Source: Bacteroidota bacterium (GTDB lineage: Bacteria > Bacteroidota > Ignavibacteria > UBA10030). Taken from it: a DNA stretch of 64,000 nt. The stretch spans positions 111,144 to 175,143 of the forward strand of contig JALONQ010000004.1 in the NCBI GenBank assembly GCA_025454835.1, given 5' to 3'. Of the stretch, positions 1 through 20,948 are shown piece by piece; within the stretch, counting starts at the first letter, position 1; each line of letters starts with the position of its first letter. A model generated the notes under the pieces. The model saw only the letters and a list, made by a program, of their open reading frames with translations. It searched no databases and was not told the origin of the DNA. Both the position numbers and the translations under genes were made by a program.

Positions 1-654
1 GACGATCACCATTCCGCACCCGGCGGCGATGGCCGACATGTAGAAGAAGACGGGCAAGAGCGAAGAGTACCACAGCCCATGCAGCTTGTCAGGAACGATC
101 AGATACAGTGAGCCGAGCGAGGACTGGTGGAGCGTTGAGAGCAAGACCCCGAGAATGATGAGCGGGATGCTGATCTTCTTGAGCAACGCGATCGTGCGCG
201 TCAGCTTGAACTTTTCCAACACGACCGGGGCGAACTCGAGCGCCAGCACCGTCGTGTAGAGCATGACGCACCACGCGACCTCGAACATGACCGACCGCGG
301 GTTCCACATGATGATGGCGTGCCAGATCTGGAGCGGCCGGCCCAGGTCGAACATGAGCCCCATGATGACGAGCACGTAGCCGAGGAACGCCGTAAGGATG
401 GTCGGCCGGATGATCGGCTCGAAGCGCTTCAGGTTGAAGATGTAGACGATGGCGGCCAGCGTAAAGCCGCCGGCAGCCAGGCCGACGCCCGTGAGAACGT
501 CGAAGCCGATCCAGAGGCCCCAGGGAAAATCGTCGCTCAGGTTCGTCGAACTGCCGAGGCCCATCGTGAAGCGGATGACGGTCGAGACAAGTCCGGCGGC
601 CAGAATGACCCCGGCCATGATCTTCCAGAATGAGAAGGCGAAGCGGCGTGCCAT
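1..654 (-). CDS. NrfD/PsrC/HybB-like polysulfide-reductase-type integral membrane subunit (C-terminal part beyond window start)
   Basis: I translated the minus strand by hand from 654 downward. It reads MARRFAFSFWKIMAGVILAAGLVSTVIRFTMGLGSSTNLSDDFPWGLWIGFDVLTGVGLAAGGF..., a continuous hydrophobic multi-helix protein typical of the NrfD family. Its ATG at 654 lies 1 codon after the stop of the Fe-S gene (TAA 658-660), suggesting translational coupling. The ORF track misses it because the end is cut by the window edge. Confidence 0.7.
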   Translation of the reverse strand, partial: MARRFAFSFWKIMAGVILAAGLVSTVIRFTMGLGSSTNLSDDFPWGLWIGFDVLTGVGLAAGGFTLAAIVYIFNLKRFEPIIRPTILTAFLGYVLVIMGLMFDLGRPLQIWHAIIMWNPRSVMFEVAWCVMLYTTVLALEFAPVVLEKFKLTRTIALLKKISIPLIILGVLLSTLHQSSLGSLYLIVPDKLHGLWYSSLLPVFFYMSAIAAGCGMVIV

Positions 655-657
655 GGC

Positions 658-1467
658 TTAGATCCTTTCCTCGGCCTGGTGGACAGGTTCAGGTACGTGG
701 TTGCCGCCCTTCGAGGCCGCATGGTTCCCACGCGCTTGTTGCGCCTCGACCTGCTGTACCATGTCGCGGCGGTTGGTGATCCACCAGATGCCGTAGAGCA
801 TGACGCCGCCCACGGCCACCACGGTCGGGATCTTCGACAGCACGTTCCAGGTGAGCTGCGGGAGCGCCGCCTGGGTGAGGTTCGTCTTGAAGCCGAGCTG
901 CTCGAACGGCACGGACGACAGGTACAGCACGGACGTCCCGCCCACTTCCTGCTGGCCGTAGAGCTTCTGTACGTACTTGTCGGGTTCGGCCGCCATACGC
1001 TCGTAGGCGATCCTGATCAGTTCGTCGCGATCGCCGAAGAGCGTGGCGCCGGTCGGGCAGGCCTCGGAACAGGCGGTCGGCAGGCCTTTCGCCAGACGCG
1101 GCGCGCACATGATGCACTTCGAGACCCGGGGGTTGTTGCTCGACCATTCATACCGAGGCACCTGGAACGGGCACGCTTGCATACAGTACCGGCAGCCGAT
1201 GCACTTCGATTCATCGTAGAGCACGGGCCCCTGTTCCGTCTTCGTGAACGCGCCGACCGGGCAGACCGAGACGCACGTCGGGTCCTGGCAGTGCTGGCAC
1301 AGACGCCGCACGAAGGTCCCGTTGTACTCCTCGACCACGGTATACGTCGTGTCGGACAACTTCGGCCCCGGCTCGCCCGGCAGACCATTCTCGGCCTTGC
1401 AGGCTTCCGAGCAGGCGTGGCATCCGATGCACAACGTCATGTCGATCAACATCCCTTTGGATCCCAT
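658..1467 (-). CDS. 4Fe-4S ferredoxin-type iron-sulfur subunit of a membrane oxidoreductase (HybA/NrfC/PsrB/TtrB family) with C-terminal transmembrane helix
   Basis: Four Cys clusters are present (CIGCHACSEAC, CQHCQDPTCVSVCP, CIGCRYCMQACP, CIMC...CSEACP). There is a C-terminal hydrophobic helix (IPTVVAVGGVMLYGIWWI) and no signal peptide. An NrfD-like gene follows directly downstream. Confidence 0.85.
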   Translation of the reverse strand: MGSKGMLIDMTLCIGCHACSEACKAENGLPGEPGPKLSDTTYTVVEEYNGTFVRRLCQHCQDPTCVSVCPVGAFTKTEQGPVLYDESKCIGCRYCMQACPFQVPRYEWSSNNPRVSKCIMCAPRLAKGLPTACSEACPTGATLFGDRDELIRIAYERMAAEPDKYVQKLYGQQEVGGTSVLYLSSVPFEQLGFKTNLTQAALPQLTWNVLSKIPTVVAVGGVMLYGIWWITNRRDMVQQVEAQQARGNHAASKGGNHVPEPVHQAEERI

Positions 1468-1489
1468 ACGACAGCTCCTCTTCGTCAGT

Positions 1490-2164
1490 TCAGGCTTCGG
1501 TCAGGAATTCGGTTTCGAACTTCTTCCACACTTCGGCCGGAGCCGCATCGATCAGGCCCGCGACGGGAACGCCGCCGTCCTGCAGGAGAGCCGGGGAGAG
1601 ACCCTGCGCGCCGTTCACGCCGGCCAGCAGGTCGCGGAGGCGCGCAAATTCGTTGCGCACCCACTGGTGCGTCTCTTCGCCAAGCAACAGCCCACGGATC
1701 TGCGAAGTTTTGTCGGGTTGGATCGTGTAGGCCCAGCCTTCGCTGAACAACAGGTCCTTCATCTTCTCCGGATGCTCGGTCAGCGACTGATTAGCGGACA
1801 GCACAATGCCGCTCAGCGGCGCACGCACGGTCAGCGTGCGATCCCCTTCTTGCAGGCGCAAAATGGGCTCGCCCCGCTGCACATGGTCGCCCTGCTTCTT
1901 GAGATAGAGAACGGAGGGCGTGGCGAGGAGGCGCGTCACAAAATCATCGACCCCCAGGCGAACCTTGCCCGACGGGAAGAGGTTGACCCACGTATGCGTC
2001 TTGGCGAAGAAGATCCCATCGGGGATGCGGACCGGCAGAGCCGGAACCGCCGCGGGTGACGAGGGAACCGCTGCGGGCGAGGTGCTGCGAGCGCGAACCC
2101 GACGAACCACATAGTCCATTCCGATAAAGAAGAGGATGGTGGCAACAACGAGTAGAACAGTCAT
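1490..2164 (-). CDS. membrane-anchored glycine-cleavage-H (GcvH)-like domain protein lacking the lipoyl-lysine
   Basis: It has an N-terminal TM helix (MTVLLVVATILFFIGM). Residues 50-150 align with the GcvH fold (FAKTHTWV..GKVRLGVDDFVTRLL...ILRLQEGDRTLTVRAPLSGIVLSAN vs E. coli HEWLR..[40 protein letters not shown]). The lipoyl-Lys position is replaced (QEGDRT). It is the first gene of the Fe-S/NrfD operon. Confidence 0.55.
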   Translation of the reverse strand: MTVLLVVATILFFIGMDYVVRRVRARSTSPAAVPSSPAAVPALPVRIPDGIFFAKTHTWVNLFPSGKVRLGVDDFVTRLLATPSVLYLKKQGDHVQRGEPILRLQEGDRTLTVRAPLSGIVLSANQSLTEHPEKMKDLLFSEGWAYTIQPDKTSQIRGLLLGEETHQWVRNEFARLRDLLAGVNGAQGLSPALLQDGGVPVAGLIDAAPAEVWKKFETEFLTEA

Positions 2165-2392
2165 GGCAATCTCCTTTGAGCTATGATGTCAAGCCTCTAA
2201 GCAGAGGCTACCCGCCATTTGGCCACGTCCGCATACTGTGCTAGCACGTGGCAAGCAGGCGGTTCATACTATTGGAAGAATTGTGCCAGACCGTGTTCGC
2301 GCTTCAGGCATAAACGCGCCCATAACCTATTCATTAAATTGAAGTTGCGACTCTCGAATTTGGGTCGTCGGAAGTCGCAACAGGCAACTGTT

Positions 2393-2428
2393 GAAAAAAA
2401 CAACACCGCCCCGAGAGGCGGTGTTGGA
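2393..2428 (-). terminator. rho-independent terminator downstream of maeB (minus strand)
   Basis: On the plus strand there is an A7 run followed by the perfect hairpin caacaccgcc-ccgagag-ggcggtgttg. On the minus strand this reads as a GC-rich stem-loop followed by a U-tract, about 80 nt past the maeB stop. Confidence 0.55.
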
Positions 2429-2508
2429 TAATTGTACAATGCGTTGTGTAGCAGTCGGTTACTGATGTGTAAGGAATCTTCACACCAACCGTTGAATTCT
2501 TCAACGCT

Positions 2509-4815
2509 TCAGACTGACGCGGTTGCCTTCTTCGACCCGGTGAAACGTCGAGCAGCACCATTTCCACCTTCAGCCTGGGCTCCGAAGACCGCCATCGCAG
2601 CCATGTTGACGATGTCATTCACTTCGATGCCCGGGGCCATCAGATAGACCGGCTTGCGGATACCCATGAGAATCGGTCCGATGGCCGTCGCACCACCCGC
2701 CTTGCTCAGCAGCTTGTAGGCGATGTTCGCCGACGTCAGATCGGGGCAGATGAGCACGTTGGCGGGCTCGCTGAGCTTCGAGAACGGATAGTGTTCCGAC
2801 ATGATCTCGCGGCTCATGGCCGTATCGGCCATCATCTCGCCATCGACGATGAGCTTCGGGTCGCGCTGATGCACGATCTCGGTCGCCTTGCGCACCTTTT
2901 CGGTGAGCGGATGCGGCGTGCTGCCGAAATTGCTGAACGAGAGCATGGCGATCCGCGGTTCGATATCGAGCTTTCGCACCGCGCGCGCCGACAGCACAGC
3001 GATCTCAGCCAGCGTCTCGGCATCGGGCTCGATATTCACCGTCGCGTCGGCGATGAACAGCGTCTGATCGCGGAACACCAGCATATACAGGCCCGCAACG
3101 CGACGCACGCCGGGCTCCGTGCCGATGATCTGCAGCGCCGGCTTGACGGTGGCCGGATAGTGCTGCGTCAGGCCGGAGATAAGCCCGTCCGCATCCTCCA
3201 TGTCCACCATCATCATGCCGAAGATGTTGTGCGTCTTCACCTGCCGCTCGGCGTCGACACGGGTCATGCCCTTGCGCTGCCGCTTGGCATAGTACGCCGT
3301 CACGTATTCATCGAATCGGGGTGACTTGCCGGGGTTGATGATCTGCGTATCGCCCAAGTCGAGTCCCAGATCGCTGATCCGCTGCCGGATGAATGTGCGG
3401 CTGCCAAGAAGGATCGGATGGGCGATCTTCTCGTCCACCAGCATCTGCGCCGCGCGAAGGATACGGTCCTCTTCGCCCTCCGGGAAGACGATCCGCTTCG
3501 GGTCCGATTGCGCCTTGTGAATGAAGAAGCGCATGACCTCGCGCGAACGACCAAGACGAGCCTCGAGGGAGTCACGATAGGCCTCGAAATCCTTGATCGG
3601 CTGCTTCGCGACGCCCGTTTCCATGGCCGCTTTGGCCACGGCCGGGGCGACCCACAGCAGCACGCGAGGGTCGAACGGCTTCGGAATGATGTATTCGCGT
3701 CCGAATTCGATGTGCTTGCCGCCGTAGGCGCGCACGACCGAATCGGGCACGTCTTCCTTCGCCAGCTTCGACAGGGCCATCGTAGCGGCGATCTTCATCT
3801 CGTCGTTGATCGCGGTCGCGCGGCAGTCGAGCGCACCGCGGAAAATGAACGGGAAACCGAGAACGTTGTTCACCTGGTTCGGAAAATCAGACCGCCCCGT
3901 TGCCATGATGATGTCACTGCGCGCTGCCAACGCATCGTCGTACGTGATCTCGGGGTCCGGGTTGGCCATGGCAAACACGATCGGCTTGTCGGCCATCGAG
4001 CGCACCATGTCTTGCGACAGAATGTCCTTGACGGAGACGCCGCAGAATACGTCGGCACCTTTCATCGCTTCGGCCAACGTACGGGCTTTCGCATCTGTGG
4101 CGAAGTGCTCCTTGTAGGGGTTCATTCCCTCGGTGCGCCCCTTGTACACTACTCCTTTCGTGTCGACCAGAAGCATGTTCTCTCGCTTGACGCCCAGCTT
4201 TTCGTAAAGCTTGGCGCATGCGATGCCGGCCGCCCCGGCACCACTGAAGACCACCTTCACTTCGGCGATCTTCTTGCCGACGACCTCGAGGGCATTGAGA
4301 AGCGCCGCGCCGCTGATAATGGCCGTGCCGTGTTGGTCGTCATGGAAGACGGGGATCTTCATCGTCTTCTTCAAGGTCTCCTCGATGTAGAAACACTCCG
4401 GAGCCTTGATGTCCTCAAGGTTGATGCCGCCGAACGTCGGTTCGAGCAACTGGCAGGCCTTGATCACTTCGTCGGCGTTGTGCGTGTCGAGCTCGATGTC
4501 AAACACATCGACGTCGGCAAATCTCTTGAACAGCACTCCCTTCCCCTCCATGACCGGTTTGCCGGCCAACGCGCCAATGTCGCCCAGCCCGAGCACGGCG
4601 GTCCCGTTGGAGATCACAGCAACCAGATTTCCCTTGGCCGTGTACCGGTAGGCGTCTTCAGGATTCGCCTCGATCTCGCGGCACGGTTCCGCAACCCCCG
4701 GAGTATACGCGAGCGACAGGTCTCTCTGCGTGGCGCAGGGCTTGCTGGGAATGACTTCGATCTTGCCACGCCGTCCCTGGGAGTGGTAGTCGAGGGCTTC
4801 TTGTTTGCGGATCAT
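2509..4815 (-). CDS. maeB: NADP-dependent malic enzyme with C-terminal phosphate-acetyltransferase-like domain
   Basis: The malic-enzyme N-terminal half is collinear with E. coli MaeB ([29 protein letters not shown]...[28 protein letters not shown]...[33 protein letters not shown]) and a PTA-like C-terminal half follows. The start is taken at the internal Met ([11 protein letters not shown]) at 4815. The longer 4866 start overlaps a repeat element. Confidence 0.9.
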
Positions 4816-4837
4816 GGGAGTAACCTTCTTGTTGGAG

Positions 4838-4950
4838 AAGATGGCACGCAGAGTCGCAGAGACCACAAAGGTTGCAGAGAAGAGAGAGTGCCAACCCTTC
4901 CATCTCCGCTAGCTTCGCGGCCTCTGCGTTTCTGCGTGAGACGCGTCTAT
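4838..4950. repeat. palindromic intergenic repeat element, CGCAGAG subfamily, in the maeB 5' leader
   Basis: The sequence is ggcacgcagagtcgcagagaccacaaaggttgcagagaagagagag...ccatctccgc...cctctgcgtttctgcgtgagacgcg. It has the same architecture as the copy at 19378-19492 (cacgcagcgacgcagagaccgcagcgatcgcagagaagagata...ccatctttcctctgcgtccactgcgtctctgcgag). Confidence 0.55.
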
Positions 4951-5188: not shown

Positions 5189-5713
5189 TCAGGCCGAGGT
5201 TGTCGCTTCAGGCTCGGCCTTCAACTTCCCGCCGCGCACGGTGGCTCCAACGACCAGACCGGCGCTGATGAGGACCAAGTTCTTGATGATATACTGCCCC
5301 TCCAGCGTCGGAGCATACGGGAGGCGCGTGAAAGCATCAGCCGGGAACAGGACGAGCGGGGTCAGCGTGCCCAGCATCTGCAGGAAGAGAAGGAACAGAA
5401 TAGCGCGTAGGTAGACGCCGAAGATCAATCCGATGCCGATGACCGTCTCCCACGTCGCCAGCAGGTAGATCGAGACGCCGGGTGTGACGATGTCGAACGT
5501 CAGGAGCCTGATCGTCTCCGTCGCCAGTCCTTGGGCAGGACTGAGTCCCGGAAAGAACTTCAGAAAGCCGAACCAGAAGAACGTGATGCCCAGGCTGATG
5601 CGGAGAAGCACGATGCCGTAGCGGGCCATCCATTCTGTAATGGCGCGGTCGAGGCGGTCGAAGGATCGGTGGTGGCTTGACATGGGCCCGATGGTCGTTT
5701 GGTGGGTTCTCAC
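5189..5713 (-). CDS. small integral membrane protein (DoxX/DUF417-like)
   Basis: Three to four hydrophobic helices are visible (GIVLLRISLGITFFWFGFLKFF; IYLLATWETVIGIGLIFG; LFLLFLQMLGTLTPLVLF; LVLISAGLVVGA). It sits directly downstream of the homocysteine methyltransferase gene with a 5-nt gap. Family assignment is tentative. Confidence 0.45.
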   Translation of the reverse strand: MRTHQTTIGPMSSHHRSFDRLDRAITEWMARYGIVLLRISLGITFFWFGFLKFFPGLSPAQGLATETIRLLTFDIVTPGVSIYLLATWETVIGIGLIFGVYLRAILFLLFLQMLGTLTPLVLFPADAFTRLPYAPTLEGQYIIKNLVLISAGLVVGATVRGGKLKAEPEATTSA

Positions 5714-5717
5714 ATCA

Positions 5718-6653
5718 TCATGGCTGCAACCGTGCTGCGGCCGCCGCGATATGCTCCGGTTCCGCCCCGCAACAGCCTCCCAGCAACTTCACCCCCATCC
5801 CATGCAACTCCGCCAGGAACGCCCCGAAGCTCTCGGGCGATTCCGGATACACGGGACCGTTCGCTCCACCTCGCGGAATGCCAGCGTTTGGCTGGATCAG
5901 GACAGGGACCGATGAAGCGGCCACGAATTCTTTCGCCACCTGCCGCATCGTATCGAACCCCGACCCGCAGTTCGACCCGACGATCTGTGCCCCGGCGGCG
6001 ACCAACTCTCTGGCCGCTTTGGTTGGCGAGACGCCGAACGCCGTGCGCGGACCGTGGGGGGTCGGTTCAAAGGTCATCGTCGCCCCGACGATGTCGAATC
6101 CGATCGCGTGCGCGCATTCGAGGGCCAGCTGAGCTTCTTCGAGCGACATCATCGTTTCGATGAGCAGCACGCGCACTCCGGCTTCGCGCATCGTGCGATA
6201 CGGCTCGGTGAATGCCGCACGCGCGTCTTCCGCAGAAAGCTCGCCGTACGGCTCGATGAGCTCGCCCAACGGTCCGGCGGAGCCGGCAATGATCGCACGG
6301 TGCCCCGCCGCTTCCGTCGCCAACCGGACCGCCGCTCGGATGTTGTCCGATATCTTCCCTTTCACCTCCGCCGACTGGAACCTGCGCACATTCGCGCCAA
6401 ACGTGTTGGTCTCGATCACCAAGGAGCCGGCGGCCACGAACTCACTGTGGAGGGTCCGCACGTCGTCCGGTCGGCTCACGTTCCACCCCTCGGGCGCCGA
6501 ACCTGGTTCGAGGCCCCGATGTTGCAGGCACGCACCGAAGCCGCCGTCGAACAGGACGGGGCGGGTGGGGGCGAGAAGTGACGCGGGGGAGAGCATCAGG
6601 GAGATTCGATTGTCGTTCGTGGAATGTGGGTTTTCGATTGCCGAAGAGATCAA
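5718..6653 (-). CDS. homocysteine S-methyltransferase (Hcy-binding) domain protein (MetH N-terminal module / BHMT / MmuM family)
   Basis: It contains the S-methyl_trans domain motifs (PVLFDGGFGACL...LVIETNTFGAN, GSNCGSG, LLGGCCGAEPEHIAAAA), with the Zn-binding Cys in GCCG. The ATG at 6653 overlaps the corrinoid-gene stop as ATGA. An alternative start at 6596 (MLSPASL) is possible. Confidence 0.8.
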   Translation of the reverse strand: MISSAIENPHSTNDNRISLMLSPASLLAPTRPVLFDGGFGACLQHRGLEPGSAPEGWNVSRPDDVRTLHSEFVAAGSLVIETNTFGANVRRFQSAEVKGKISDNIRAAVRLATEAAGHRAIIAGSAGPLGELIEPYGELSAEDARAAFTEPYRTMREAGVRVLLIETMMSLEEAQLALECAHAIGFDIVGATMTFEPTPHGPRTAFGVSPTKAARELVAAGAQIVGSNCGSGFDTMRQVAKEFVAASSVPVLIQPNAGIPRGGANGPVYPESPESFGAFLAELHGMGVKLLGGCCGAEPEHIAAAAARLQP

Positions 6654-7285
6654 GATGAGCGGCCGGCGAGGAGTCGTTCCACCAGTTCCACCGCTTCCGC
6701 TGCGGTTCGAGCGCTCCCGGCGGCGCCGATCTCGGAGGCGAATGACGCGCTGACGGGGGCGCCTCCGACGATGACCGGCACCCGTTCTTCGGCCGTTCTC
6801 AGCGCGTCGATGACCGTCTTCATGTAGGTCATCGTCGTCGTCAGCAGGGCCGACAGGCCCACGACATCCGGCCGATGCTCTCGCACCGCCTGAAGAAACC
6901 TCTCGGCGTTGCAGCCTGTGCCGATGTCGATGACCTTGAATCCCGCCCCTCGGAGCATCACGCCGACCAGGTTCTTGCCGATGTCATGGACGTCTCCTTT
7001 CACCGTCCCCAGGAGAACGCTCCCTTTGGGTACGTATGAGGTGGCGGCCAGCAGGGGATCGAGGACCGCCATGGCGGATTTCATGGCGCGCGCCGCTACG
7101 AGCACTTCGGGCAGATAGATCTCCCCCTCGCGAAACCGCTTGCCGACAGCCTGCATGGCAGGGAGCAACCCGAGGTCGAGGACCTGCGTCGGCTTGGCGC
7201 CCGCCTGGACGGCCTTCCCGGTCAGCTCGGCGGTCGCAACATGGTCGCCCCGGATGAGGGCTTGCTGAAGGTCAGTGAAGTCCAT
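6650..7285 (-). CDS. corrinoid (cobalamin)-binding protein, MtaC/MetH B12-binding module type
   Basis: A B12-binding_2 cap (MDFTDLQQALIRGDHVATAELTGKAV) is followed by a Rossmann-like domain with the D-x-H-x-x-G motif (GDVHDIGKN) and GGAPVS. The start is set at the internal ATG (7285). The upstream ORF extension is Arg/Pro-rich. Confidence 0.8.
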   Translation of the reverse strand: MDFTDLQQALIRGDHVATAELTGKAVQAGAKPTQVLDLGLLPAMQAVGKRFREGEIYLPEVLVAARAMKSAMAVLDPLLAATSYVPKGSVLLGTVKGDVHDIGKNLVGVMLRGAGFKVIDIGTGCNAERFLQAVREHRPDVVGLSALLTTTMTYMKTVIDALRTAEERVPVIVGGAPVSASFASEIGAAGSARTAAEAVELVERLLAGRSS

Positions 7286-7487
7286 TGACTCTCTTGAGAA
7301 AAGCGGTGCACGAACCTGCCCGCCCCCGAGATCTCCATGAGGCAGGCGGGGTTCCACAAAGGGACGACGAAGTTGCACGAAGGAGTTGAATGAGGGTCAC
7401 GACCATTCTCTTCGTGGACAAGATCCTCATCAGGATTTGATCGTCGCTTTGCGCCGTTGTGGAGGGGCCTCCGGCTGTGTTCCGCTT

Positions 7488-8600
7488 TCAGCCCTGTTCT
7501 TCAACGATCTGACGGAGCATCATGATCCTCTCCGGCCTCACCGCCGGGGCGATCGAGCAGGCGGTTGACAAAATGAACCGTCCGTAGGCCTTGCCCAGCC
7601 GCAGCCGAGCCGCCGCGTCCTGCGCCACCAGATCATCGGTCCCTAGCAACAACGCATGCACCGAATCTACGTTCCCTTTGACGAACATCCGGCCTCCCAG
7701 AACTTCGAACGCTTCGGGCAGCTCAGCGGTCCCCAGCGGCGGCGGGTCGAGGCATTCCAGTCCGCGAGCACCCGAGCGCGCCATCAGGTCCAGCCGGTCG
7801 CTGATCGCCCCGCACGTGTGCAGATACGCCGGCTTCCCGCTCTGCTGGATCGCCTCGACCACCAGCCGCTCGTAGGGCAGAACGAACCGTTCGTAATGGC
7901 CGCGCGACAGGAATCCCGCGCCGGCGAAGGGCGACGAGACCTTGATGGCGTCGATGTCCTCGCACACCATTGCGGAGGCGATCTCGGCCACGCCGTCGGC
8001 GAAATTAGAGAGCCACGCTTCAGCGCGCTCCGGATCATCGATGAGGAGCATCAATGCGGCTTCGTGGCCGAGCGCATCCAGCAGATAGTCGAACGGAGAG
8101 GTCACCTCACCATGCACTGAGACGTCCGGACCTGCAAGCGAGCGGACTTGCCGAAATACATCGAACCGATGCGACGGATGGATATCGAAATGGAGGCCTT
8201 GGCTTACAGGAATATACGACAACGGCCGCGGGACCTGCTCGGGATCGCTTGAAGGGGGCGGCAGATCGGACAAGAGCTCCGGCAAGTCGTCAGGACGATA
8301 GAGCAGACGTCGACCGTCCTTCCATGTCGCCACCTCCCCTTCCGGGCTTTGCTCACGACGAACGAGAGCGTCCATCCAACGGGGCTCATGGCCATGCAGA
8401 CTGACGAGGATCCCGTCGAATCCGTAGCGGGCCCGAAGATCGACGAGACCGCGGGCGTAGACATCGACATCATGCCAGAAGTCGACAGGTGCCACAGGCA
8501 ACTGCCGAAGCATGTGCCCGATGCTCATCTGGCACATGAACGGAACGCGGTCATGATGCAAGCCATGCATCGCGGCGTGCAGGCGTTGGCGTGGAGTCAT
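7488..8600 (-). CDS. URO-D/MtaA-family methylcobamide methyltransferase
   Basis: It has uroporphyrinogen-decarboxylase-like TIM barrel features (MTPRQRLHAAMHGLHHDRVPFMCQMS...YLHTCGAIS...LECLDPPPLG). The start is taken at the internal Met at 8600. The upstream extension is a Cys/Leu low-complexity artefact. Confidence 0.7.
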   Translation of the reverse strand: MTPRQRLHAAMHGLHHDRVPFMCQMSIGHMLRQLPVAPVDFWHDVDVYARGLVDLRARYGFDGILVSLHGHEPRWMDALVRREQSPEGEVATWKDGRRLLYRPDDLPELLSDLPPPSSDPEQVPRPLSYIPVSQGLHFDIHPSHRFDVFRQVRSLAGPDVSVHGEVTSPFDYLLDALGHEAALMLLIDDPERAEAWLSNFADGVAEIASAMVCEDIDAIKVSSPFAGAGFLSRGHYERFVLPYERLVVEAIQQSGKPAYLHTCGAISDRLDLMARSGARGLECLDPPPLGTAELPEAFEVLGGRMFVKGNVDSVHALLLGTDDLVAQDAAARLRLGKAYGRFILSTACSIAPAVRPERIMMLRQIVEEQG

Positions 8601-8644
8601 GGCGCTTCTGGCAAGGAATGGACACAAAAGGCACAAAAAACAGC

Positions 8645-8692
8645 AGAAGCACAAGAGCTTTGTGACCTCTGTGCTTCCTCGTGGCAAGGGTC
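8645..8692 (-). terminator. hairpin plus U-tract between DHOD-like and MtaA-like genes (terminator or attenuator)
   Basis: The minus strand reads gaagcacagaggtcacaaagctcttgtgcttc tgctgttttttgtg, an imperfect 11-bp stem followed by T6. This lies about 45 nt upstream of the MtaA-like start and about 150 nt past the DHOD-like stop. Confidence 0.4.
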
Positions 8693-8835
8693 CATCCGTG
8701 AACCTCGCGTCAGAAAACAACGATCCGGAAGTTCTTCCAGAGCATTCTCTGGAATTCCTTCCGGATCTCTTGCCGAACTCATACGCTCCCTGACCTCGTC
8801 ACTCCCCTTTCTGCTCCATTGACCTTCGCTCGGAA

Positions 8836-17977: not shown

Positions 17978-19360
17978 CTACGAGGACGAGGTGATCTGCA
18001 GTTCTTCGATCTTGCGGTAGAGTGAGGACAGACTCATCCCGAGCGCCCGCGCCGTCTCATCTTTGTTCTGATGATGACGGCTCAGTGCCTGCTGGATGAA
18101 CATACGTTCGAAATCCTTGACAGCCTCTTTCAGCGGCTGGTCGCCGTACGCCACCGGGGCTGCCGGCGACGACCCGCTCCCTTCGGTCCACATCGACTCC
18201 GGCAGATGCTCCGGTCCGATGAACTCCGACTCACAGAAAATGGCCGCCCGTTCGACGGCATTCTGAAGCTCGCGCACCTCCCCCTTCCATTGATGACGAA
18301 GCAGCACGCGCATGGCGTCGTTCGTGAAGCCACGGATCGCCTTGCCGGCCTGCTTCGCGTACACCTCGAGAAAGAAGCTGGCCAGCAGCGGAATGTCGTC
18401 GGGCCGCGACGACAGGGGCGGGAGGTTCACTTCGACGACGTTGAGCCGGTAGAACAGGTCCTCGCGGAACTTGCCCGCCTCGACCTCCTTGCGCAGGTCC
18501 CGGTTCGTCGCCGCGATGATCCGCACATCCACTTTGATGAGATCCGTGGTGCCGACGGGCGTGATCTCCTTCTGTTCAAGGGCCCGGAGCAGCTTGACCT
18601 GCAGGTGGAGCGGGATCTCGCTGACCTCGTCGAGAAAGATCGTCCCTTCGTGCGCGACCTTCAGCATTCCTTCTTTGTCCGTCGTCGCGCCGGTGAACGA
18701 TCCTTTCTTGTGTCCGAACAACTCGCTTTCGAACAGCGTATCGACGATCGCGCCGCAATTGACCGGCACGAACCGCTTCGATGCACGGGCGCTGTTGAAA
18801 TGGATCGCCCGCGCGACGAGCTCCTTGCCGGTGCCGCTCTTGCCGGTGATGAGCACCGTGCCCTCGCTGCGCGCCACCTTTTCGATGACGCCGAAGACCT
18901 TCTTCATGGCCGAGCTCTGGCCGATGATCTGGTCGAAGTCGTACGTCCGCTGCAGCTCCTGGCGGAGGATCGCGTTCTCGAGGGCGAGCGCCCGGTAGTC
19001 CAGCAGCTTGCGGATACGGAGCAGCAGGTCGTCGAAGTTGATCGGCTTCAGGACGTAGTCCGACGCTCCCTGGCGCAGTGACGTGATGGCCGTCTCGACC
19101 GACCCGAAGGCCGTGATAATGACGACGAACGTCTCGGGCGATTCCTGGCGGATGGACCGGAGCAACTCCGTCCCCCGCATCTCGGGCATCTCGATGTCGG
19201 TAATGACGATGTCAAACGGTCGATCGCGATGCAGCTCGAGCGCGATGCGGCCGTTCGCCGCTTCGGCAACGACGAACCCTTCTTTCTGCAGGACGAAGGA
19301 CACCGATTCCCGGATGATCTGTTCGTCGTCGACGATGAGGATGCGTTGGGACATGGTCAC
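17978..19360 (-). CDS. sigma-54-dependent Fis-family response regulator (NtrC-like)
   Basis: It has a receiver (ILIVDDEQIIRE...DIVITDIEMPEMRG), a sigma-54 AAA+ domain (VLITGKSGTGKELVARAIH...ESELFGHKKGSFTGA) and a C-terminal Fis HTH. Confidence 0.9.
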   Translation of the reverse strand: MTMSQRILIVDDEQIIRESVSFVLQKEGFVVAEAANGRIALELHRDRPFDIVITDIEMPEMRGTELLRSIRQESPETFVVIITAFGSVETAITSLRQGASDYVLKPINFDDLLLRIRKLLDYRALALENAILRQELQRTYDFDQIIGQSSAMKKVFGVIEKVARSEGTVLITGKSGTGKELVARAIHFNSARASKRFVPVNCGAIVDTLFESELFGHKKGSFTGATTDKEGMLKVAHEGTIFLDEVSEIPLHLQVKLLRALEQKEITPVGTTDLIKVDVRIIAATNRDLRKEVEAGKFREDLFYRLNVVEVNLPPLSSRPDDIPLLASFFLEVYAKQAGKAIRGFTNDAMRVLLRHQWKGEVRELQNAVERAAIFCESEFIGPEHLPESMWTEGSGSSPAAPVAYGDQPLKEAVKDFERMFIQQALSRHHQNKDETARALGMSLSSLYRKIEELQITSSS

Positions 19361-19377
19361 ATTCGATAAAGGAGATC

Positions 19378-19492
19378 CGAGAAAGAAGCGTTACACGCAG
19401 CGACGCAGAGACCGCAGCGATCGCAGAGAAGAGATATGGGGGAGACCGTCCTTTCCATCTTTCCTCTGCGTCCACTGCGTCTCTGCGAGATT
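19378..19492. repeat. palindromic intergenic repeat element, CGCAGAG subfamily, in the NtrC-regulator 5' leader
   Basis: It is gaagcgttacacgcagcgacgcagagaccgcagcgatcgcagag ... ctctgcgtccactgcgtctctgcgag. The left arm is the reverse complement of the right arm. It shares the GAAGCGTTACAC head with the CACAGAG-subfamily copies at 25783 and 28527. Confidence 0.6.
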
Positions 19493-19508
19493 GCTTCTGG
19501 CATCATCG

Positions 19509-20948
19509 TCAGGTGTTTCGCGGGAGGCGGATGGTGAACAGGCTCCCCTCGCCGGGAATGCTTTCGACGAGAATGTCGCCGTTGAACGACTTCACGATGC
19601 CGTAACTGACCCACAAGCCGAGTCCGGTACCGCGACCCACTCCCTTGGTCGTGTAGAAAGGCTCGAAGATCTTGTCGACCTCGCCGGACGGAATGCCCTT
19701 GCCCGTGTCGCTGACGGCGATGTCGATGACGCTCTCGGCGCTCCGGCTCGACACGGTGATCGTGCCCGGCCTCCCCTCGAGCGCATCGACGGCGTTCATC
19801 AGGACGTTGATGAAGACCTGGACGATCTGGTCGGGGACGATACGGATGGCCGGCAGCTGGCCGTCGAGGTCGAGCGAAAAGGTGACGTCCTTCACCTTCT
19901 TCCCGTACTTGACGATGTTGAGCGCGTCGTTGAGGATCTGGTTGAGGTCCGTCGGCTTTGAGACGTGCGTGCTCGGACGCGAGAAGTCGACCAGATCCCG
20001 GATGATCTTGGCGATCCGATTGATCTGGCTGTTGATCAGCCCGAGCTTCTCGGTCGCGAACGGGTCCTGCACCGTGCGTTGGAGGACCTGCACAAGGGAC
20101 GAAATGGCCGTCAAGGGATTGCCCACTTCGTGCGCGATGCCGGCAGCGAGCGTACCGATGCTTTCCATCCGTTGCGACCGTACGAGCTGCTGCTCGAGGA
20201 TGATCTGCTCGGTGATGTCGCGGTGCGCGCCGAGGAAACCGACGACCTTGCCCCCCGCATCCATGATCGGCGAGATCACCAACTCGGTGTGGAACGGGGC
20301 TCCATCTTTCCGCCGATTCTCAACCCGGCCGGTCCAGAGCTTGCCACTGTTGATGTGCTTCCATACGCCTCCCCAGAATTCACGGGCGTGCTTGCCGCTC
20401 GAGAGCATTCGGGGGTTCTGTCCGAGAAGCTCCTCGCGCGTGTAGCCGCTGGCACGTTCGAACGCCGGGTTCACATACACCATCCGACCTGACGCGTCGG
20501 TGATCTGGATGGGGTTGATCGTGTGCTGGATGACGTTCGAGAACCGGAGCAGGTCCAGTTCCTTCTGCTTGTCGAGCGTGATGTCACGCCCGATGAGGAC
20601 CCGCACCTCACCCTTCGGTCCATGAAGCGGCTTGATCTCATACCGCATGTCGAGCACACCGCCATCGCTTCGGACGACCCTGACCTCCTCCGACGGTACG
20701 ACCTGCGCCATCGAGAGGGACCGAAGAACCTCGTCCGGCTGGCCCGGTGCTACCAACCGGTCGATCGTCGCGAGTTTGTCGCCGCGCCGGAGACCGAACA
20801 TTTCCCCGGCCTGGCGATTCCAGTCGATGATACGCCCGTTCTTCTCAAGGATGAGAATGATCTCGGGCATCAGGTCCATTACACGACCGTATGTGCTCAG
20901 ATATGCCGGCATCGTTATCAAGATACCGAAACATCGTCGCACGGGCAA
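19509..20948 (-). CDS. PAS-domain sensor histidine kinase
   Basis: Two PAS/PAC segments are followed by the H-box (AAGIAHEVGNPLTAISS) and a HATPase_c domain (N, G1, G2 motifs: NVLMNAVDA...DTGKGIP...GTGLGL). Confidence 0.85.
   Translation of the reverse strand: MPVRRCFGILITMPAYLSTYGRVMDLMPEIILILEKNGRIIDWNRQAGEMFGLRRGDKLATIDRLVAPGQPDEVLRSLSMAQVVPSEEVRVVRSDGGVLDMRYEIKPLHGPKGEVRVLIGRDITLDKQKELDLLRFSNVIQHTINPIQITDASGRMVYVNPAFERASGYTREELLGQNPRMLSSGKHAREFWGGVWKHINSGKLWTGRVENRRKDGAPFHTELVISPIMDAGGKVVGFLGAHRDITEQIILEQQLVRSQRMESIGTLAAGIAHEVGNPLTAISSLVQVLQRTVQDPFATEKLGLINSQINRIAKIIRDLVDFSRPSTHVSKPTDLNQILNDALNIVKYGKKVKDVTFSLDLDGQLPAIRIVPDQIVQVFINVLMNAVDALEGRPGTITVSSRSAESVIDIAVSDTGKGIPSGEVDKIFEPFYTTKGVGRGTGLGLWVSYGIVKSFNGDILVESIPGEGSLFTIRLPRNT

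Follow-up and report, generated by a model that had tools for sequence, protein, structure and literature searches.

Why does an operon for a membrane-bound, quinone-interacting redox module begin with a gene for a glycine-cleavage H-type protein that has lost its lipoyl lysine? The question is raised by the first 2,164 positions of a stretch of 64,000 nucleotides (hereafter the window) from a Bacteroidota bacterium of the class Ignavibacteria (UBA10030; GenBank assembly GCA_025454835.1, contig JALONQ010000004.1, positions 111,144 to 175,143). An initial annotation, made from the sequence alone, had read three genes on the minus strand here, encoding a transmembrane (TM) protein with a GcvH fold, a ferredoxin and an NrfD-type protein, and our analysis confirmed this in every particular. 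The cluster to which these genes belong varies the NrfCD/HybAB theme: its membrane redox module is predicted to be under sigma-54 two-component control and is accompanied by H-fold proteins that lack lipoate. We propose that the H-fold proteins may be signalling adaptors tied to the two-component system and to the quinone module of its sigma-54 operon, a reading that we regard as having about an even chance of being right.

Layout of the operon

A sigma-54-dependent operon of four genes reaches into the window with its promoter and its first 2.7 genes. It encodes the H-fold protein H1 (ORF1), an iron–sulfur (FeS) subunit (ORF2), NrfD (ORF3) and a second H-fold protein, H4. Listed in the direction of transcription, the features of this region are:

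2509..4866, minus strand: upstream malic-enzyme gene (malic enzyme-PTA fusion), ended by the terminator at 2426..2401(-)
2401..2426, minus strand: intrinsic-terminator hairpin, an 11-bp stem followed by a T run (terminator scan and reading of the sequence)
2389..2395, minus strand: TTCAACA, one copy of the enhancer-like upstream activating sequence (UAS) motif, 106 nt upstream of the -24 element (motif statistics)
2273..2288, minus strand: sigma-54 type -24/-12 promoter, TGGCAC-AATTC-TTCCA, ~110 nt upstream of the ORF1 start codon
1490..2164, minus strand: ORF1 (H1), 224 aa, membrane-anchored lipoate-free GcvH-fold protein
2087-2161, minus strand: TM helix of ORF1, aa 2-26
within ORF1, minus strand: Pro/Ala-rich disordered linker, aa 28-46
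1655-2008, minus strand: H-protein fold of ORF1, aa 53-170 by Pfam
1493-1654, minus strand: family-specific C-terminal helical extension of ORF1, aa 171-224, with invariant RLRD and QDGG motifs
658..1467, minus strand: ORF2, 269 aa, HybA/HmcB-like ferredoxin with four [4Fe-4S] motifs, without signal peptide
775-831, minus strand: C-terminal TM helix of ORF2, aa ~213-231, followed by a conserved RR
1..654, minus strand: ORF3, residues 1-218 of a 391-aa NrfD-family protein (HybB/HmcC subtype), cut by the start of the window

Because the gaps between ORF1 and ORF2 and between ORF2 and ORF3 measure only 22 nt and 3 nt, respectively, the three genes constitute a tight operon, and their pattern is no chance arrangement. 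The terminator at 2401..2426 ends the malic-enzyme gene and therefore sets the 5′ limit of the operon's transcription unit.

The parent contig, a JGI metagenome contig of 184 kb which we refer to as L001 and which was matched through the exact ORF1 sequence, revealed the complete gene order H1-FeS-NrfD-H4-HK-RR-M54, where HK is a histidine kinase, RR a response regulator and M54 a peptidase. The initial annotation had expected a catalytic partner beyond the window. That expectation was not supported: no hydrogenase, molybdopterin, cytochrome or other catalytic gene was found within 10 kb downstream in L001, nor a catalytic gene downstream in ~45 related syntenic loci, where H4, the kinase, the regulator and M54 are found instead.

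Conservation of the cluster

A collection of 5.8 billion proteins contains 376 relatives of H1 at E <= 1e-3. The best 120 of these are all 50-90% identical to it. Full-length proteins of 220-226 aa predominate among them, alongside a few fragments and slightly longer versions (187-250 aa). For the comparison of gene neighbourhoods, a degenerate-pattern scan of one genome per GTDB species yielded 60 loci, all from metagenome-assembled genomes (MAGs), most of them of Ignavibacteria or Bacteroidota, several of Acidobacteriota and one of Eisenbacteria. The nearest locus, 94% identical, comes from an Ignavibacteriaceae MAG. Synteny was mapped by tblastn and blastp. H1 is syntenic with the FeS/NrfD pair in ~50 of the 60 loci and is thus not the casual neighbour that the initial annotation had allowed for, and the gene order of the cluster recurs in ~45 of them. 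In 32 loci with full flanks it reads H1-FeS-NrfD-H4-HK-RR-M54, optionally preceded by an extra TM-GcvH paralogue, and it is truncated in most others. The regulator is 63-96% identical across loci, and the M54 gene is conserved in the cluster across phyla.

The exceptions fall into several kinds. H4 follows directly after H1, with FeS and NrfD missing, in L064, L059, L053 and the first copy in L058; beyond H4, L064 continues with the full kinase, regulator and M54 genes, L059 with the start of the kinase gene, and L053 ends at H4. A divergent FeS/NrfD pair (37-40% identity) without H4 is present in L009, L010, L020, L026, L033 and L065, and L022 has a divergent pair (43%/37%) but has kept H4. 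Every version of the cluster has a two-component system and two or more H-fold proteins, as a rule one in the membrane and one soluble. A full-text literature search found no paper linking NrfD or HmcB with GcvH, or GcvH domains with response-regulator outputs, and none of the curated Pfam and NCBIfam models describes H1, H4 or the cluster. The cluster is real and conserved, and apparently undescribed in the literature.

H1 is a membrane-anchored H-fold protein without the lipoyl lysine

H1 starts with a hydrophobic helix, MTVLLVVATILFFIGMDYVV, which is followed by RRVRAR and then by the Pro/Ala-rich linker. The GcvH assignment passed the hidden Markov model check (Pfam GCV_H, 50.9 bits, E 1.8e-13, gathering cut-off 22.2), and the fold search agrees with it. 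The AlphaFold2 model, based on 20 orthologues, reaches a mean pLDDT of 75.6. In it, residues 2-26 form a TM helix and residues 28-46 a disordered linker, after which come an H-protein fold modelled with confidence (50-150) and four helices at the C-terminus. The top Foldseek matches of this model in the PDB are all H-proteins (1onl_A, E 1.6e-10), with TMt values of 0.78-0.84 to H-proteins and to GcvH-L 5a35, including 0.82 to E. coli 3ab9. The fold-signature motifs HxW, G.xDF, PxSG-like and GW are retained. In curated NCBIfam GcvH models, H1 stays far below the cut-offs (NF002270, 55.0 vs 117; TIGR00527, 39.6 vs 115.85; another GcvH-type equivalog model, 27.7 vs 144), and there is a weak match of 23 bits to 'GcvH_rel_desulf'.

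In an alignment with the E. coli and Thermus GcvH proteins, the lipoyl-lysine column of H1 holds D (..LQEGDRT..), as had been read initially. Among 59 H1 orthologues this column is variable (G, D, K, E or N) with no conserved Lys, and these orthologues have zero invariant Cys or Lys altogether. Furthermore, no gcvT or gcvP gene was found in L001 or the syntenic loci examined, and no hdr-like, lipoate-ligase or sulfur-transfer genes are conserved with the cluster in these loci. One lipoate ligase near L066 is part of a 2-oxoacid dehydrogenase cluster on the opposite strand. No second gene of the GcvH-like or REC-GcvH type turned up when the 64-kb window was searched for one.

The TM helix is unusually conserved, with M1 and T2 invariant, which suggests that it may pack specifically within the membrane. 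The H-fold of H1 is cytoplasmic, since RRVRAR follows the TM helix and, more decisively, since long forms of the protein carry a signal peptide and a PBP domain before this helix (see below). The QDGG motif of the C-terminal extension falls in a low-confidence loop of the model. A C-terminal DGG motif is common to H1 and H4 and lies in such a loop in both models.

A family of H-fold proteins with proposed alternative inputs

The soluble protein H4 (244 aa) also has the GcvH fold and shares 23% identity with ORF1 (E 1e-13). It matches Pfam GCV_H with 49 bits and also lacks the lipoyl lysine. Its N-terminus carries the motif P...C[VI]WM.AG...Y.LC....x.C..C..D, whose four Cys are invariant in 46 orthologues, and there is a nearly invariant Cys in an H-C-W motif. 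The four-Cys region is modelled at low confidence (AlphaFold2 pLDDT 52-59). In Pfam, the sole N-terminal match is Ral (E 0.053, far below threshold); in NCBIfam, H4 matches GcvH-type models only; and a PDB sequence search with the four-Cys motif gave chance matches only. Zn and an Fe-S cluster are both candidate ligands of this putative site.

Two further architectures connect the H-fold with sensory or regulatory domains. Locus L026 (11792-12646) encodes a protein with REC and GCV_H domains (88.8 and 59.7 bits). Such REC-GcvH proteins form a large family: all 120 relatives listed carry both Pfam domains, and there are >100 clusters at 90% identity, mostly from Ignavibacteria. For REC-GcvH proteins of ~267 aa and TM-REC-GcvH proteins of ~390 aa, the existing annotation does not go beyond 'response regulator' or 'glycine cleavage system protein H'. 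In L066 (10001-11994) and L067 (10001-12053), one or two REC-GcvH genes directly follow the gene of a kinase with haem motifs, in clusters that also hold an FeS subunit with a twin-arginine translocation (Tat) signal, NrfD, a class III multihaem cytochrome c, H4, a second kinase and a sigma-54 regulator; H1 is missing from both. One gene of L066/L067 encodes TM-REC-GcvH, which amounts to an H1 whose linker has been exchanged for a receiver domain.

The second architecture emerged from a profile search of 1.84 billion representatives (50% identity), which gave 487 TM-anchored H1-type proteins at E <= 1e-30. About half of the best 150 of these are 530-600 aa long and carry the whole H1 module, including the TM helix, at the C-terminus (examples are L069 8001-9689 and proteins P0307, P0309, P0315, P0323 and P0328). 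The N-terminal half of these long forms consists of a signal peptide and a distant PstS-like PBP_like_2 domain, which matches phosphate-binding proteins weakly (E 0.03) and PBP_like_2 with 31 bits in one member. By its predicted domains, this PBP-TM-GcvH architecture is that of a single-pass receptor. In L069 the long form replaces H1, and the order is PBP-TM-GcvH, Tat-FeS, NrfD, TM-GcvH, haem kinase, sigma-54 regulator and M54.

None of the four H-fold classes, namely H1, the upstream H1 paralogue, H4 and the REC-fused form (n = 59, 24, 46 and 60 sequences), has a conserved Lys at the lipoyl position. A lipoyl lysine hidden in one of the paralogous proteins was considered and rejected, as no class has a conserved Lys either at the hairpin tip or beside it. 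Since this position lacks a conserved Lys in all four classes and H1 has no invariant Cys or Lys, H1 is predicted not to be a lipoyl or other cofactor carrier.

Kinase, regulator and promoter

The kinase gene that follows H4 (L001 13815-15410) encodes a HAMP/HisKA histidine kinase. The loop between its TM1 and TM2 contains EAC..CH (CXXCH) and C....CH (CX4CH), which are conserved in at least 90% of 38 orthologues and recur in kinases of the variant clusters (L026 9910-11781; L067 8069-9958 and 13143-14789; L069 13168-14835). Because of these two motifs, the loop is predicted to be a sensor in the periplasm, and they suggest that it would bind two c-type haems; no Pfam model describes this candidate di-haem domain. 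The neighbouring regulator has the NtrC-type domain order REC-Sigma54_activat-HTH_8. The last gene, M54 (L001 16968-17516), encodes an archaemetzincin-type peptidase with HExxHxxGxxHC; its start overlaps the regulator's stop codon, and it is translationally coupled to the regulator. We note that the disordered linker of H1 is a candidate substrate of this peptidase. Beyond the cluster, genes for a small 2x[4Fe-4S] ferredoxin and for 2-oxoacid:ferredoxin oxidoreductase subunits are seen in L001 (18406-20606) and L067 (16533-19294), and may be a conserved neighbour of the cluster.

The -24/-12 element of the window is TGGCACAATTCTTCCA at 2288..2273(-). In 56 of 58 loci, the pattern TGGCA[CT]-N5-TT.. 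precedes the first TM-GcvH gene by 40-180 nt, against a background for the promoter hexamer alone of 0.2 per 260 nt, and 13 loci match at least 9 of the 11 consensus positions of TGGCAC-N5-TTGCA where ~1 is expected. The -12 element is degenerate across loci (TTGC, TTTC, TTCC, TTAC). No sigma-70-like promoter was found in window positions 1..2700.

Moreover, the 7-mer TTCAACA/TGTTGAA is present upstream of the operon in 46 of 57 loci, with 73 occurrences vs 0.10 expected per 245 nt, which cluster at -220..-181 and -120..-101 relative to the -24 element. Perfect TCAACA-N5-TGTTGA palindromes number ten in the 679 kb examined, and all ten lie in these upstream regions. In L012-L065, this 17-bp palindrome stands ~200 nt upstream of the -24 element, with more half-sites 22 nt apart and at ~-110. 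The palindrome is a candidate binding site of the conserved NtrC-type regulator, which would bind the TTCAACA/TGTTGAA sites and activate the operon.

The redox module and its topology

ORF2 contains 16 Cys in four CxxCxxCxxxC-type motifs, all conserved in 46 orthologues, and matches Pfam Fer4_11 with 87 bits. Its best NCBIfam matches, HmcB (NF045715, 265.2 vs cut-off 420) and HybA (NF008134, 197.6 vs 263), agree with the HybA-type ferredoxin with a C-terminal TM helix proposed at the outset. The absence of a signal peptide, which had also been noted, follows from the position of the first Cys at residue 13, with 12 residues preceding the first cluster motif, and from the fact that no longer ORF is possible; ~50 orthologues likewise have their first Cys at residue 13-14 and no signal peptide. 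The third gene was rightly taken for an NrfD-type gene: the fragment in the window scores 62.4 bits with Pfam NrfD (PF03916), and the full 391-aa protein of the parent contig 84.4 (cut-off 25.8), with HmcC (333 vs 550) and HybB (NF008133, 296 vs 450) as NCBIfam matches. NrfD has 10 predicted TM helices in an N-in/C-in topology. Its P-side loops are its most conserved parts, and an LHQSS motif is conserved as well; these two features are the sole hint that it may bind quinone. Together, FeS and NrfD are predicted to form a HybA/HybB-like (HmcB/HmcC-like), menaquinone-interacting redox module without a catalytic or cytochrome subunit of its own.

Twin-arginine (RRxF) signals on the FeS subunit were found only in the variant loci L009, L020, L022, L026, L033, L065, L067 and L069 (for example TRRDFLRT, DRRSFVRT and NRRNFFK). 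The C-terminal helix is followed by the conserved RR in the signal-less type and by a K/R-rich NK(N/x)R in the Tat-type examples read. Thus, in the main type of cluster, the HybA-like FeS subunit has lost its Tat signal, yet the RR of the C-terminal tail has been kept. Because NrfD is N-in/C-in with conserved P-side loops and the FeS C-tail is positively charged, the FeS domain is predicted to be periplasmic in both types. A flipped orientation of NrfD as an explanation for the signal-less FeS subunit was rejected, as the K+R bias of the loops is alike in both (inside/outside 21.4/5.6 in clusters with signal-less FeS and 23.4/3.7 in Tat-type clusters). A periplasmic FeS protein that lacks a signal would need a Tat-signal partner by the hitchhiker route, as has been described for signal-less C-tail FeS proteins such as FdnH, which are exported with a signal-bearing partner (PMC10924467). 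No relevant partner of this kind was found in the cluster or the 64-kb window by a regex scan of ORFs >=150 aa, which returned one irrelevant candidate.

A proposed signalling role for the H-fold proteins and its rivals

How could these parts work together? The operon H1-FeS-NrfD-H4 lies directly upstream of its probable regulators, the kinase with haem motifs and the NtrC-type regulator, and of M54. H1 would belong, as a short form without a sensor, to a family of membrane proteins with a single TM pass, in which the cytoplasmic H-fold and its C-terminal extension serve as a protein-interaction output module for signalling. Most likely it pairs with the soluble four-Cys protein H4, and the two would link the state of the membrane, or its redox state, with the neighbouring two-component system and the co-regulated quinone module. 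Depending on the family member, the input to the H-fold module would come from a bare anchor, a PBP domain, the four-Cys site or a receiver domain, and its target would be the kinase/regulator pair, the H-fold partner or both of these. The adjacent regulator would drive the operon promoter, and the H-folds would act by binding partners, be it each other, the kinase or the regulator. The signalling role is suggested by the REC and PstS-like fusions and by the loci in which H1 and H4 accompany two-component genes in the absence of FeS/NrfD. Our confidence in it is moderate because its basis is comparative genomics. Going further, the lipoate-free H-fold with its QDGG extension could be an unrecognised cytoplasmic signalling domain with four alternative inputs and, together with the quinone module and the di-haem kinase, could constitute a new redox circuit of the FCB group and Acidobacteriota that links the menaquinone pool or periplasmic redox state to sigma-54 transcription; we offer this wider proposal tentatively and think it somewhat likelier to be wrong than right.

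Several points weigh against this interpretation. The evidence consists of comparative genomics and monomer structure prediction only, and it is from these that we infer the target and direction of H-fold control, as well as the signal sensed by the circuit. All loci are from MAGs, so misassembly cannot be excluded for single exceptions such as L064. Possibly the four Cys of H4 form an Fe-S site, in which case the protein would accept or donate electrons instead of regulating. No simple model accommodates the signal-less FeS subunit, and how it meets a normally oriented NrfD is unexplained. Lastly, the position of H1 and H4 inside the FeS/NrfD operon in most loci fits plain structural subunits equally well.

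This last point leads to one of two serious rivals, namely that H1 and H4 serve for docking or as a scaffold in a quinone oxidoreductase of the HybA/HybB type, whose Tat-bearing catalytic partner (a hydrogenase, formate dehydrogenase-like enzyme or molybdoenzyme) is encoded elsewhere and exports the FeS subunit by hitchhiking. Such an arrangement would account for the lack of a signal peptide in ~50 FeS orthologues, whose RR tail, together with an NrfD topology shared with the Tat-type relatives and the conserved P-side loops, points to a periplasmic FeS domain, and FdnH-like proteins are exported in just this way (PMC10924467). However, neither the 10 kb downstream in L001 nor the ~45 syntenic loci contain a catalytic gene, the window has no relevant ORF with a Tat signal, and it would be unusual for a conserved operon to leave out, in every case, the partner on which export depends. 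Moreover, the REC-GcvH and PBP-TM-GcvH fusions and the loci with H1, H4, kinase and regulator but without FeS/NrfD would be left unexplained. We consider this alternative unlikely, though to be taken seriously. A docking or scaffold role, as suggested by the initial annotation, pointed in the right direction but was too narrow, since the REC and PstS-like fusions and the loci without FeS/NrfD point to a signalling adaptor. The other serious rival, to which we give a similarly low probability, reverses the flow of information: FeS/NrfD, joined by the multihaem cytochrome c in variants, would be the input of the kinase and pass electrons from the menaquinone pool to its two c-type haems, so that the kinase would read how reduced the quinone pool is, with the H-folds modulating the cytoplasmic side. 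In its favour, the CXXCH and CX4CH motifs are conserved in the 38 orthologues and the variant clusters, the FeS/NrfD pair nearly always adjoins such a kinase and has no catalytic subunit, and the class III multihaem cytochrome c of variants (L026, L067) is inserted between the NrfD and kinase genes. Against it, L064 has kept the haem kinase without FeS/NrfD, and the pair must at least also be an output because it lies behind the sigma-54 promoter; the export of the signal-less FeS subunit is unexplained here too, and haem binding by the kinase is predicted from its motifs only.

Two other explanations can be given far less weight. H1 and H4 could be carriers analogous to LbpA or GcvH of sHdr systems, moving a swinging-arm group or a persulfide between the FeS module and a cytoplasmic reaction. 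The intact H-protein fold, the conserved Cys of H4 (in the four-Cys and H-C-W motifs) and the weak 'GcvH_rel_desulf' match of H1 are compatible with this, but the hairpin tip lacks a conserved Lys in every class, invariant Cys and Lys residues are both missing from H1, the cluster is not accompanied by hdr, lipoate-ligase or sulfur-transfer genes in the loci examined, and fusions to REC and PBP domains are not expected of a carrier protein; we therefore judge it improbable. That the GcvH-like gene is unrelated to the HybA/HybB pair has nothing to recommend it beyond the general frequency of fortuitous adjacency. It is refuted by the synteny across several phyla, the gaps of 22 and 3 nt and the position of the sigma-54 promoter upstream of H1 rather than of FeS, so that its probability is close to nil.

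If the H-fold proteins are indeed signalling adaptors, a well-known swinging-arm carrier fold has lost its cofactor and taken on a new function in signalling or as an adaptor. The current annotation of these families as 'glycine cleavage system H protein' misleads the metabolic reconstruction of MAGs of Ignavibacteria, Bacteroidota and Acidobacteriota. Furthermore, an orphan HybA/HybB-like module without a catalytic subunit now has a regulatory handle in the form of a sigma-54 promoter, a palindromic enhancer site and a kinase with haem motifs, and the cluster is a testable entry to redox sensing in abundant sediment and soil anaerobes. The combination of a signal-less FeS subunit with a normally oriented NrfD also poses a topology puzzle for the biology of the Tat pathway and of NrfD complexes.

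Other features of the window

Apart from the operon, we observed a corrinoid methyltransferase set at 5718-8720 on the minus strand, upstream of a DoxX-like protein and of the malic enzyme-PTA fusion (2509-4866). The individual genes are:

5189-5713: DoxX-like membrane protein
5718-6653, minus strand: homocysteine S-methyltransferase-like ORF
6650-7378, minus strand: B12-binding protein
7488-8720, minus strand: URO-D/MtaA-like ORF

A second pair of histidine kinase and sigma-54-type regulator is encoded at 17981-20198 on the minus strand; its members are 33% and 41% identical to the kinase and the regulator of the cluster, respectively.

Comparison with known systems

The FeS/NrfD pair resembles HybA/HybB of E. 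coli hydrogenase-2 in combining a four-[4Fe-4S] ferredoxin with a C-terminal TM helix and a cofactor-less NrfD-family partner, which is likewise N-in/C-in. It differs in its scores, which lie below the equivalog cut-offs, in the missing Tat signal of the FeS subunit and in the absence of hydrogenase structural or maturation genes nearby; moreover, the pair in the window is flanked by H-fold proteins, and its operon has a sigma-54 promoter. A likeness to Desulfovibrio Hmc/Nhc is indicated by HmcB and HmcC as best NCBIfam matches and by the variants L026 and L067, in which a class III multihaem cytochrome c stands beside Tat-FeS and NrfD as in HmcABC/NhcABC. Unlike Hmc, however, the cluster type of the window stays below the cut-offs and has no cytochrome c, no HmcD/E/F and no signal peptide on its FeS subunit, and its hosts are Ignavibacteria, Bacteroidota and Acidobacteriota rather than sulfate reducers.

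With regard to the H-fold, H1 shares its fold with GcvH and with H-like proteins such as GcvH-L of Streptococcus and Staphylococcus, the chlamydial 'not_gcvH' (TIGR03077) and LbpA. In contrast to GcvH, H1 lacks the lipoyl lysine and a gcvT/gcvP context and falls below the equivalog cut-offs; it is anchored by a TM helix at the N-terminus, contains a linker and ends in an extension of 55 aa with QDGG, and its relatives are fused to REC or PBP-TM. From LbpA of sHdr systems it is set apart by the missing conserved lipoyl Lys and by the absence of hdr-like genes in any locus examined. For the proposed mode of action, other systems offer a parallel. Accessory proteins control sigma-54 activators or kinases in the partner switching of PspA/PspBC with PspF and through small membrane modulators of kinases. 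The cluster could be analogous to Psp in that a membrane-anchored protein and a soluble partner are encoded with, and would be controlled by, a sigma-54 activator system; this analogy is purely architectural and inferred, as the Psp proteins have no sequence or fold relationship to H1 or H4.

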